A DNA stretch of 32,000 bases from an uncultured bacterium. Its GTDB lineage: Bacteria; Margulisbacteria; WOR-1; CAVSGV01. Position 1 is the first letter of the stretch, and every line of letters begins with the position of its first letter. The notes below the pieces were generated by a model. The model searched no databases and was not told where the DNA came from. It saw only the letters and a program-made list of their open reading frames with translations. A program made the position numbers and the translations under genes. The DNA is taken from positions 480,001 to 512,000 of the forward strand of contig OY969425.1 of NCBI GenBank assembly GCA_963699255.1, read 5' to 3'. Of the stretch, positions 21,751-23,123 are shown one piece after another.

Positions 21751-22233
21751 ATGAATAAACTGTTAAAGACTCTTGCTCCGGTTATGCTGGTGTTTTTCTG
21801 TTCAGTCTGCATTGTTGGCCCGGTTTGGGGTGAGGATTTTTCTATTACTGTAAAAGCCCCTGAAAATGTTGAGGTTAATAAGAATATCGACGTTAATATT
21901 GCATTTTCCAAAGCTGAGATAGAAAATAGAAGTTTGAATTTGGATATTGTTTATTCCGATGGTTTCATCTCATCGACGAGCAACGCCATGATCACGCAAG
22001 AAAGTTACCAGCTCACATTTAAAGCCCCTACGCAAGAAAGTACAGCAACCATTAGAATCGCAGTAATGGAAAATAAGGTAATAATTTCACACAAGATCAT
22101 TCAAGTTAGAGCATATAAAGCAGTTGATTTAAACCCAATTGTTGCAGTAGGGGTTGTTACGTTAGCAGTGTTTTTGGGCGGGCTATCTTTTTTGGCAAAT
22201 TTGATTGCTCCGGGAATTGCGGGGATGCATTAA
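21751..22233 (+). CDS. Small exported membrane-anchored protein, family 'A' copy 2
   Basis: The signal peptide MNKLLKTLAPVMLVFFCSVCIVGPVWG is homologous to copies 1 and 3. It has a diverged beta-rich body and a C-terminal TM helix (VAVGVVTLAVFLGGLSFLANLIA). Confidence 0.7.
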   Translation: MNKLLKTLAPVMLVFFCSVCIVGPVWGEDFSITVKAPENVEVNKNIDVNIAFSKAEIENRSLNLDIVYSDGFISSTSNAMITQESYQLTFKAPTQESTATIRIAVMENKVIISHKIIQVRAYKAVDLNPIVAVGVVTLAVFLGGLSFLANLIAPGIAGMH

Positions 22234-22236
22234 TGT

Positions 22237-22551
22237 ATGGCTAGGCCGAGATTTTACCTGAATATTTTTATCGCATTGCTATTGCTGGCATTTTTTTGCT
22301 CAAGCAATAATTATGCATCACTCATCGAGGGAACAAATACATATGATAATTATATATTCGTATTGGTTCATGGGATTAAGAGCGACGGGACAATTTTCTC
22401 GGACAGAAATTACGGGGGGCTCAAAGAGTATCTGGAAAATCCTGTCTCAGAAGGTGGGCTTGGTTTGGCTGGAAGAGTCTTCGCCTATACTTTTTCTAGG
22501 CTCTATGCTCTATTCCCTATGCTCTCGATAGAAAGGAAGTGTTTTGAATGA
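22237..22551 (+). pseudogene. 104-codon 5' stub of a giant-gene paralogue (signal peptide + first strand of the lipase-like domain only)
   Basis: NYIFVLVHGIKSDGTIFSD...LKEYLEN...GRVFAYTF aligns with giant-ORF NYLVILVHGIAETSDIFDD...LKPYLED...GYVYAYDF. Homology then ends, before the nucleophile elbow, in SRLYALFPML...stop. Confidence 0.6.
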
Positions 22552-23063
22552 GTAAAATGTTAAAGAGTGTCGCCCTCGTAATGTTCGCTATCTTTTGTTC
22601 AGTCTGCATTGTTGGGTCAGCATGGGGAGAGGCAAGCAAGATAACTCCACCTCGAATTTCGGCCCCAGACTATGTTGACGCAGGAAAATCATTTCAAATC
22701 AAGATTACTTTCGACAAGGACACATATTCAACTGGCAAATATTCTTTTCAGATAGTCTTCCCTGAGCAATTCAACAAGGGCATGATCAACTTTCAAATTA
22801 CCAATGAAGCTTATGCAATTATAGCAAATTCTCCGACACAGGAAGGGGATTTTGTCATTCAATATAGCATTCATGAGCAGGACACCACAGTCATTTGGAC
22901 TGGAAGCGTAGAGATAAACATTTTAGCTTTAAATATATCGGTAAAGGAAAGCGAAAAACAATCATTACATGAAGAGCCAAGCCCGATGTCTGTTGTTGGG
23001 GGATTATTAATGGATATTATTTCAATTCCAATTAAATTTATTTTTGCATGGAAGGGAACATGA
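22548..23063 (+). CDS. Small exported membrane-anchored protein, family 'A' copy 3
   Basis: Signal peptide MSKMLKSVALVMFAIFCSVCIVGSAWG. A 20-nt stretch (22596-22615) is identical to 21799-21818. The start overlaps the stop of the stub (ATGA at 22548-22551). The C-terminal segment is hydrophobic. Confidence 0.7.
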   Translation: MSKMLKSVALVMFAIFCSVCIVGSAWGEASKITPPRISAPDYVDAGKSFQIKITFDKDTYSTGKYSFQIVFPEQFNKGMINFQITNEAYAIIANSPTQEGDFVIQYSIHEQDTTVIWTGSVEINILALNISVKESEKQSLHEEPSPMSVVGGLLMDIISIPIKFIFAWKGT

Positions 23064-23064
23064 T

Positions 23065-23123
23065 GTATATGTTTACGCTTATAGTTTCTCTAGACTCTAC
23101 GCTCTAGTCCCTAGAGCTCTACT
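23065..23123 (+). pseudogene. Relic of a second giant-gene 5' stub (VYVYAYSF + shared junction sequence)
   Basis: Positions 23071-23123 align at about 80% identity by eye with 22477-22528. The first codons match giant-ORF YVYAYDF (1307-1326). Confidence 0.5.

Follow-up and report, generated by a model that had tools for sequence, protein, structure and literature searches.

A candidate recombining lipase-like module at the N-terminal end of a giant protein, with orphan partner genes, in an uncultured WOR-1 bacterium

The window analysed here, a stretch of 32,000 nucleotides of contig OY969425.1 (assembly GCA_963699255.1) from an uncultured bacterium of the WOR-1 lineage, carries a giant gene whose product begins with a lipase-like domain (the head) and is directly preceded by a small gene for an exported partner protein, A1. 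Two paralogs of this partner, A2 and A3, lie farther downstream, each followed by the remnant of a head. Comparison with related loci supports well, as an evolutionary pattern, a 5' module of discrete types that recombines between conserved flanks and is accompanied by cassette arrays. The reading favoured here, held at a confidence just short of even, is that A and head together form a recombining polymorphic module, that the orphans in the window are decayed remnants of such modules, and that A acts in an immunity-like manner toward its cognate head. The immunity role itself is plausible by analogy with known toxin systems.

Discrete head types on a conserved giant body

The giant, a surface protein of one subclade of Candidatus Margulisiibacteriota, appears to combine a conserved body and a C-terminal sorting domain resembling that of a type IX secretion system (T9SS) with a hypervariable 5' module comprising A and the lipase-like head. 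Its relatives, which come from Candidatus Margulisiibacteriota/WOR-1 genomes reconstructed from metagenomes and are referred to by locus (L) and protein (P) handles, are 80-95% identical to it in protein sequence from residue ~632 onward and 20-45% identical before that point. In the giants of L001 and L004, 50-residue windows mostly show 14-45% identity before residue ~630, and nearly all show 64-98% after it. At the DNA level, similarity to L001 (78%) and L004 (82%) begins exactly at position 3007, codon 640, between KVIQ and NTIPMQ, and the linker preceding it (2423..3006) has no DNA similarity to either locus; in L007, L010 and L013, similarity resumes earlier, near 2423, at about codon 445-455. 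Starting from ~2390-2473, this linker is 75-78% identical in nucleotides to three head copies of L013 and 72% identical to L010, and it corresponds to the 3' homology arm of cassettes in relatives. Two other database heads (P0045, P0047) end exactly after KVIQN. As judged from these alignments, the junctions between variable and conserved sequence at nt 3007 and ~2423 are sharp, the module occurs in at least five discrete types, and it has been exchanged between strains by recombination in its conserved flanks. The 5' exchange flank comprises the ribosome-binding site and signal peptide of A, and the 3' flank lies at head codon ~455 or at the head/body junction, codon 640. Within the A region, DNA similarity between types is confined to the 5' flank (579..682), 579-654 being 72% identical to L013 and 583-643 being 82% identical to L016. 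The G+C content of the modules (0.38-0.40) is below that of the giant body (0.46-0.50), which fits exchanged cassettes. Homologous loci thus vary in the A/head pair while the body is conserved and the recombinant junctions are sharp, as an earlier reading of this DNA from sequence alone had anticipated. A second assembly of the region (L003) shows a single mismatch and a single gap in ~4 kb (99.95% identity), so that it provides next to no population variation. Neither genome contigs of species representatives, searched with the giant segment of the window, nor metagenome contigs, scanned with the A family and with the giant body, gave a match.

Full-length heads belonging to both orphan types, for which the same reading had proposed a survey, exist in relatives. 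In L005 and L008, the A proteins encoded in front of type-2 heads (P0005, P0007) share ~60% identity with A2, and the A3 DNA is homologous to A genes that stand before intact giants in L001 (78.5%; giant of 4,754 aa) and L004 (71.6%); the A3 C-terminus, AWKGT before the stop codon, aligns with AWTYH at the end of P0006. On this sequence evidence, each orphan in the window goes back to a complete module of the matching type. Local tandem duplication of A with subsequent divergence was rejected, as A2- and A3-type modules with intact heads are found elsewhere and their divergence is about that of the giant body: the synonymous divergence (dS) of the A3-type genes of the window and L004 is ~1.3, of the same order as the value of 0.83 for the giant bodies.

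The head passes the Pfam PGAP1 model (PF07819; 29.1 bits against a cut-off of 24.3), and residues S135, G137, G138, H164 and D168 are invariant among heads, S135 representing the nucleophile in the motif S135-x-G137. In a model built with AlphaFold2 (AF2), the core reaches predicted local distance difference test (pLDDT) values of 70-90, and residues 464-640 are poorly modelled. Foldseek places this model nearest to lipases of Proteus, Burkholderia and Bacillus, with family I.1/I.2 lipases as the best matches (E 4e-7 to 1e-4) and 4gw3, 6jd9, 7cof, 1ys1, 1tah, 1cvl and 2es4_B as the top entries. A profile of ten heads gave weak PDB matches to family I lipases and a glycosylphosphatidylinositol (GPI) inositol-deacylase and an insignificant one to 4R1D (E=0.42), and the head as a single sequence found no match in PDB. 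Head type 1 is 20-50% identical to the other types. The nucleophile elbow of the window head (1480-1500, residues 131-138) reads A-K-S-E-G, and that of most other types reads A/T-H-S-M/L-G; S-E-G also occurs in the head of P0050 (H-S-E-G), and the sequence of the window elbow may point to a changed activity or substrate.

The three A genes had been described as small paralogous open reading frames (ORFs) with a shared signal peptide and a C-terminal transmembrane helix, and this description holds, with the ORFs at the positions given for them. Aligned end to end, the proteins are 25-29% identical, with the conserved positions mostly in the signal peptide, and the 20-mer TGTTCAGTCTGCATTGTTGG, identical at 21799-21818 and 22596-22615, lies inside an 86-nt direct repeat (D1, 74% identical) that takes in the start codons of A2 and A3 and their signal-peptide coding sequence. 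All three proteins have an N-terminal hydrophobic segment (KD19 2.3-2.4) and a C-terminal one above the usual membrane threshold (2.63 in A1, 2.48 in A2 and a weaker 1.96 in A3). The AF2 model of A1, built on an 8-sequence alignment (pLDDT 72.5), begins with a signal helix, continues as a beta-sandwich (residues 31-130) and closes with a helix (132-162); a Foldseek search with it returned only generic immunoglobulin (Ig)-like PDB matches. Searches of Pfam and NCBIfam assigned A to no family and found no similarity to known immunity, Tli or foldase families. A BatD-like identity was discarded, since PF13584 appears only for A3 and far from significance (E=0.079, 14 bits against a cut-off of 24.1). 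The A1 and giant ORFs overlap by 4 nt, suggesting translational coupling. Promoter and terminator scans around A1, A2 and A3 gave results at or under shuffle expectation. The family is tiny, with 8 proteins among 5.8 billion and 11 matches at E<1e-10 among 1.84 billion cluster representatives, all of identical architecture; weaker hidden Markov model matches (the P0018/P0021/P0027 group) were not accepted as members, P0027 adjoining cupredoxin genes and no hydrolase.

Orphan cassettes in the window and in relatives

Over 88 aa, the ORF behind A2 (22237-22551) shares 75% identity with the N-terminus of the intact L005 head, and DNA homology to L005 spans 21749-22494 (75% over 761 nt). As this homology stops at 22494, where the L005 head runs on as ...AYSFDKPNEW..., the head part amounts to 86 codons and the last 18 are unrelated. 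The stub that the sequence-only reading took to be 104 codons long is therefore indeed a head start lacking the nucleophile elbow (giant residue S135), but a shorter one. The relic noted behind A3 is likewise present, with ~10 codons (23062-23092) instead of ~8, and is 87% identical over 31 nt to L004 4654-4684. A 218-aa ORF (23044-23700) that begins in the relic and runs antisense to the protease gene is almost certainly spurious.

As the sequence-only reading had missed, the two head fragments stop at one shared head position, behind AY[T/S]F, and both then enter TCTAGRCTCTAYGCTCTAKTCCCTA (22495-22519 and 23089-23113), a pattern with 2 matches against 0 expected from shuffles. This common end point and the common junction sequence, J', indicate that the two cassettes are not independent decays, a possibility that the shared J' rules out. 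The second copy of J' is the plain 3' flank of the protease gene, and the idea that J' is a general sequence 5' of A genes or an attC-like site was abandoned, as it is absent from all other loci. Two courses could have led to this arrangement: the truncated unit was copied and later converted, or recombination at the conserved VYAYxF motif brought in a second unit. In both cassettes the head was severed at one common codon and joined to one common sequence beside the protease gene, with A2 and A3 left intact, and a second, later deletion, beginning right after the A3 stop codon, removed the intergenic spacer and codons 1-~75 of head 3. Since the orphans end at head codon 86 and have no conserved 3' segment, they record a replacement and cannot donate a head by simple homologous recombination; of the earlier suggestion that the locus records or enables head replacement, only the first half thus stands.

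Orphan arrays of A and truncated head, which the window alone had suggested, recur in L013, L017 and L007. The L013 array lies 24 kb upstream of the main giant of the same genome (L010) and comprises, in order, an intervening-sequence (IVS)-type gene, A (240 aa), head (737 aa), a further IVS-type gene, A (210 aa) and head (721 aa). The first of these heads ends 41 aa beyond the head/body junction and the second at the junction, and their unique interiors are bounded by direct repeats of 84% (5') and 87% (3') identity. A third head fragment is inverted, within a 1.8-kb inverted repeat of 94% identity. L017, a 112-kb contig, has two orphan units upstream of an intact A/giant pair: A with a head broken off 102 aa into the body, then A with a head stub of ~200 aa, and, behind a beta-helix gene, A with an intact giant of 4,126 aa; the beta-helix gene is a homolog of window ORF 8-556. 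From head codon ~460 on, L007 shares 92.5% identity with L017, but the A and hydrolase types before that point are unrelated, which indicates that the module was swapped inside an orphan cassette. On sequence comparison, genomes of this group accumulate extra A/head cassettes without a giant body.

Several further observations concern these arrays. The L013 inverted repeat (12799-14601 versus 20055-18251) pairs the 3' part of an orphan head and its downstream DNA with a convergent head copy 3.6 kb away, and could bring about inversion of the segment between them. Head-4 stubs of L007 (3970-4569) and L017 (6936-7535, 13693-14406) are fused to different copies of an SBBP-repeat beta-propeller lipoprotein gene, through either recombining paralogs or one chimeric contig. 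Near-identical copies of the IVS-type gene stand directly 5' of each A/head cassette in relatives and constitute the 5' direct repeat of the cassettes, flanking them in L013, L014 and L017; they may serve as a recombination arm, a selfish insert or a regulator. Such four-helix genes are interspersed in the window (15234-15647) and in L013 (6644-7081, 10104-10601), L014 (1574-2017), L017 (4165-4587, 5707-6078) and L012 (6601-6999); the PD-(D/E)XK_3 gene (16627-17187) is likewise interspersed in the giant-gene operon.

Possible roles of the partner protein

A lies directly upstream of the head in 12 of the 12 pairs available, and over these pairs the identity of A bodies correlates with that of head N-termini (Mantel r=0.68, p=2e-4). 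Hypervariability of the head is seen only where A is present: in an A-less WOR-1 clade, the head (mostly 71-96% identical) is no more divergent than the body (mostly 63-88%). In that clade, a conserved lipoprotein-like gene of ~318 aa, unrelated to A, stands directly 5' of the giant (L012 7205-8167, L011 1593-2543), and its product may be a functional counterpart of A.

An inhibitor role for A is favoured on several grounds. Discrete hypervariable types, orphan arrays and intact orphan partners typify conflict systems; hypervariability is confined to loci that bear A; heads that do without A in the sister clade speak against a foldase of obligatory kind; and PGAP1-like lipases are known toxins with periplasmic immunity proteins (PMC5611513). 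A would bind its cognate head at the periplasmic face of the inner membrane and hold the lipase inactive until export, and orphan A genes could be kept as protection against the heads of neighbours. The C-terminus of the giant would be needed for T9SS-type export and anchoring, forcing the functional diversifying domain to the N-terminus; the placement of the partner gene upstream would follow from this presumed service of the tail in export.

Polymorphic toxin systems with orphan toxin/immunity cassettes have been surveyed (Zhang et al. 2012, PMC3482391), and the present locus resembles cdiA-CT/cdiI and rhs-CT/rhsI in many respects. A long conserved stalk is joined sharply to a hypervariable enzymatic end domain, a small adjacent partner gene co-varies with it, discrete types are exchanged by recombination, arrays of truncated end-domain/partner orphans retain homology to the main gene, and the module has a lower G+C content. 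Unlike in these systems, the variable domain is N-terminal (residues 1-~455/640) and the partner is encoded upstream, with the C-terminus conserved, a reversal of polarity already noticed in the window alone; export is apparently T9SS-type via the C-terminal sorting domain; the partner is a predicted membrane-anchored beta-sandwich unrelated to known immunity families; and the window orphans are far downstream and without the homology stretch. Searches of the literature, PMC3482391 included, yielded no T9SS-type giant protein whose polymorphic module is N-terminal and has its partner encoded upstream. The PGAP1-like lipase TplE (Tle4), a type VI secretion system (T6SS) toxin, is neutralised by the periplasmic immunity protein TplEi (Tli4) (PMC5611513). 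This pair offers a parallel in its lipase-type domain, which in the present head passes the PGAP1 threshold, and in an exported partner located, by prediction, where the lipase would meet the membranes of the producer. In contrast to it, Pfam and NCBIfam scans found no T6SS genes (VgrG/Hcp/PAAR) in the window, A is dissimilar to Tli4, and the head is part of a 4,715-aa protein.

The last ~100 residues of the giant match the C-terminal domain (CTD) of the PorU model (E 2.4e-12) and FlgD-Ig, with dedicated CTD models all below cut-off. This tail and the presence of a PorV/PorQ-family gene in the operon recall T9SS cargo; the host, unlike that of known T9SS cargo, lies outside the Fibrobacteres-Chlorobi-Bacteroidetes group, in which T9SS has been characterised, and the window holds no core T9SS genes. 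The T9SS-type parts (15644-16591, 18231-21629 and the giant tail at 14920-15234) are clustered in this Margulisiibacteriota genome, and the PorV/PorQ-type gene, the cargo-type tail and the 1132-aa barrel may constitute a dedicated minimal export set for the giant. A further-reaching version of the favoured reading, which is rather doubtful as a whole, is a reversed-polarity effector/immunity system: a T9SS-type fibre would bear a contact-dependent lipase weapon at its distal N-terminal tip, with an inner-membrane immunity protein encoded upstream, head/immunity arrays, and orphan immunity genes kept against neighbours. If true, no interbacterial-antagonism system would have been described in Margulisiibacteriota before it, nor any polymorphic toxin class in which the variable end is dictated by a C-terminal secretion signal.

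A number of points weigh against the favoured reading. Pairing is not strict, as in the lone discordant locus, L016, A is type-5-like and the head N-terminus shares 81-90% identity with type 1, only 109 aa of this head being known; and co-variation of A and head could arise from physical linkage alone. Heads occur without A in the more distant relatives L011 and L012. A matches no known immunity family, and its modelled fold is generic Ig-like. The ratio of nonsynonymous to synonymous substitutions (dN/dS) is 0.21 for A2 and ~0.2 for orphan A2/A3, not above that of pairs that still have heads, but dS is saturated (1.2-1.8) in A-gene comparisons, so that the ratio is little informative on the time since A was orphaned. 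The orphans lie 6.5 kb downstream of the operon of the giant, not beside its variable end, and the duplicated J' has two candidate origins. PorK/L/M/N are missing from the window, and the similarity of the 1132-aa barrel to SprA/Sov (TIGR04189) is weak (31.5 bits, far under the cut-off of 200). Several of the relatives are short or long-read metagenome contigs, whose truncations may be assembly or sequencing artefacts.

The main rival, which we consider unlikely, is that A serves its specific head as a helper in the periplasm (as steric chaperone, foldase, or export or anchoring adaptor), like the membrane-anchored Lif foldases of family I lipases; this rival takes first place because the head has a family I lipase fold. 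The fibre tip would then be diversified under phages, grazers or hosts, the helper would track the tip, and orphan A genes would be remnants without a function. Structurally, the head comes closest to family I.1/I.2 lipases, among them the foldase-bound entries 2es4 and 9g8u, and as in the family I lipase/Lif pairs (LipA/LipB), a lipase fold is combined with an adjacent, predicted membrane-anchored periplasmic partner; A is predicted to be exported and membrane-anchored, overlaps the lipase gene by 4 nt and co-varies with the head. Lif foldases, however, are helical proteins of larger size that carry their anchor at the N-terminus. The beta-sandwich of A measures ~100 aa, its anchor is C-terminal, and neither sequence nor fold similarity to Lif was found, so that fold, size, anchor end and gene order all differ, and Lif systems are not hypervariable and form no cassette arrays. 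Against a helper also stand the A-less heads of L011 and L012, the occurrence of discrete types, of cassette arrays and of orphan partners left intact beside deleted heads, which are hallmarks of conflict systems and not of chaperones, and, as weak evidence, the finding of no relaxed constraint on orphan A2 and A3.

It is quite improbable that the orphans of the window are plain debris, in which former extra A+giant operons or head cassettes were deleted, A2 and A3 survive only through their shortness, differences between strains are ordinary gene turnover, and A and head are not functionally coupled. Stub and relic are clearly non-functional, with the nucleophile elbow missing and out-of-context tails; truncation points vary by locus (codon 86, ~200, 640, 681, ~740), the orphans have no 3' homology, and the promoter scan is uninformative. 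Simple decay nevertheless leaves unexplained that the mosaic changes sharply at conserved flanks, that an orphan cassette has exchanged its module, that A and head co-vary, that hypervariability is limited to the A-bearing clade, that two cassettes of different type have the identical junction, and that a deletion spared A3 to its exact stop codon.

Least probable of all is programmed variation, in which silent A+head cassettes would recombine into the expressed giant and switch its tip, as in pilE/pilS or the activation of orphan rhs/cdiA: although L013 and L017 cassettes retain both conserved flanks in the orientation of the main gene, with a 3' arm 75-80% identical to it, the 1.8-kb, 94% inverted repeat connects two L013 heads, and heads are swapped between close strains, the window cassettes, unlike pilS cassettes, keep the 5' arm (signal peptide) only and have no 3' arm at all, the 69-87% identity of the arms is low if homologous recombination is to be frequent, the arrays have no adjoining recombinase or invertase gene, and the two assemblies, with one mismatch and one gap over 4 kb, show no within-sample variant.

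Should A be an inhibitor as favoured here, the logic of polymorphic toxins (stalk, swappable enzymatic end, linked partner, orphan cassettes) would have assembled in mirror image with a C-terminal secretion signal. This would widen the search space to T9SS-type cargo and to N-terminal domains of giant proteins, which are overlooked by searches centred on the C-terminus, and would provide a candidate system of cell-cell interaction or antagonism for an uncultured phylum with small genomes, as well as a small beta-sandwich family (~100 aa) whose members may bind lipases specifically. Should A instead be a chaperone, the sharply bounded recombining head would still represent a clean natural case of domain swapping in a giant gene.

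Features of the window and neighbouring genes

Table 1. Coordinates of features in the 32,000-nucleotide window.
Feature	Position	Strand	Remarks
Beta-helix ('choice-of-anchor Q') protein, C-terminal part	8..556	+	Pfam Beta_helix, NCBIfam choice_anch_Q
Module 5' flank	579..682	+	Ribosome-binding site and A signal-peptide coding region
A1	602..1093	+	Predicted exported: signal peptide, beta-sandwich, C-terminal membrane helix; partner of intact head
Giant gene	1090-15237	+	4,715 aa; signal peptide and PGAP1-like alpha/beta hydrolase at N-terminus
Giant codons 1-~445	1090..2422	+	Signal peptide and variable lipase-like alpha/beta-hydrolase domain, head type 1
Giant codons ~445-639, linker	2423..3006	+	Common to head types 1, 4 and 5; differs in types 2 and 3
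Giant conserved body	3007..15237	+	Ig-like repeats, beta-propeller repeats, C-terminal T9SS-type sorting domain
23S rRNA-intervening-sequence-type four-helix-bundle protein	15234..15647	+	Pfam 23S_rRNA_IVP 9.5e-27
PorV/PorQ-family outer-membrane protein	15644..16591	+	315 aa; NCBIfam NF033709, 112.9 bits against cut-off 90
PD-(D/E)XK_3 protein	16627..17187	+	Pfam PF13366 1.3e-30
NHL-repeat beta-propeller protein	17243..18217	+	Pfam NHL 6.8e-45
Outer-membrane beta-barrel protein	18231..21629	+	1132 aa; OMP_b-brl
A2	21751..22233	+	Intact orphan partner gene, type 2
Stub	22237..22494	+	Codons 1-86 of type-2 head; ORF extends to 22551 via unrelated sequence
J' copy 1	22495..22527	+	Repeat family D2
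A3	22548..23063	+	Intact orphan partner gene, type 3
Relic	23062..23092	+	~10 codons (codons ~76-86) of type-3 head
J' copy 2	23089..23121	+	Holds hairpin GCTCTAGtccCTAGAGC; overlaps stop codon of convergent protease gene
RDD-domain/trypsin-like protease	23119..24261	-	Trypsin_2 1.4e-28, RDD 1.3e-12; right-hand array boundary

At the left edge of the window, the C-terminus encoded by 8..556 (...YPYSMGAYEYD) matches a 393-aa gene of L017 that lies directly 5' of an A/giant pair, so that the arrangement is syntenic. To the right of the array, the protease gene is followed by housekeeping genes. An inverted repeat at 21639-21703, between the 1132-aa barrel gene and A2, consists of 15-nt arms that are 87% complementary, with a 35-nt spacer and reiterated ACGAAT/ATTCGTTGAT motifs, and may act as a terminator or operator. 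Farther downstream, an alpha-amylase is divided between two adjacent minus-strand ORFs, 28567-29787 (a 406-aa catalytic domain) and 28231-28539 (a 102-aa fragment of the C-terminal domain), which suggests a frameshift or pseudogene.

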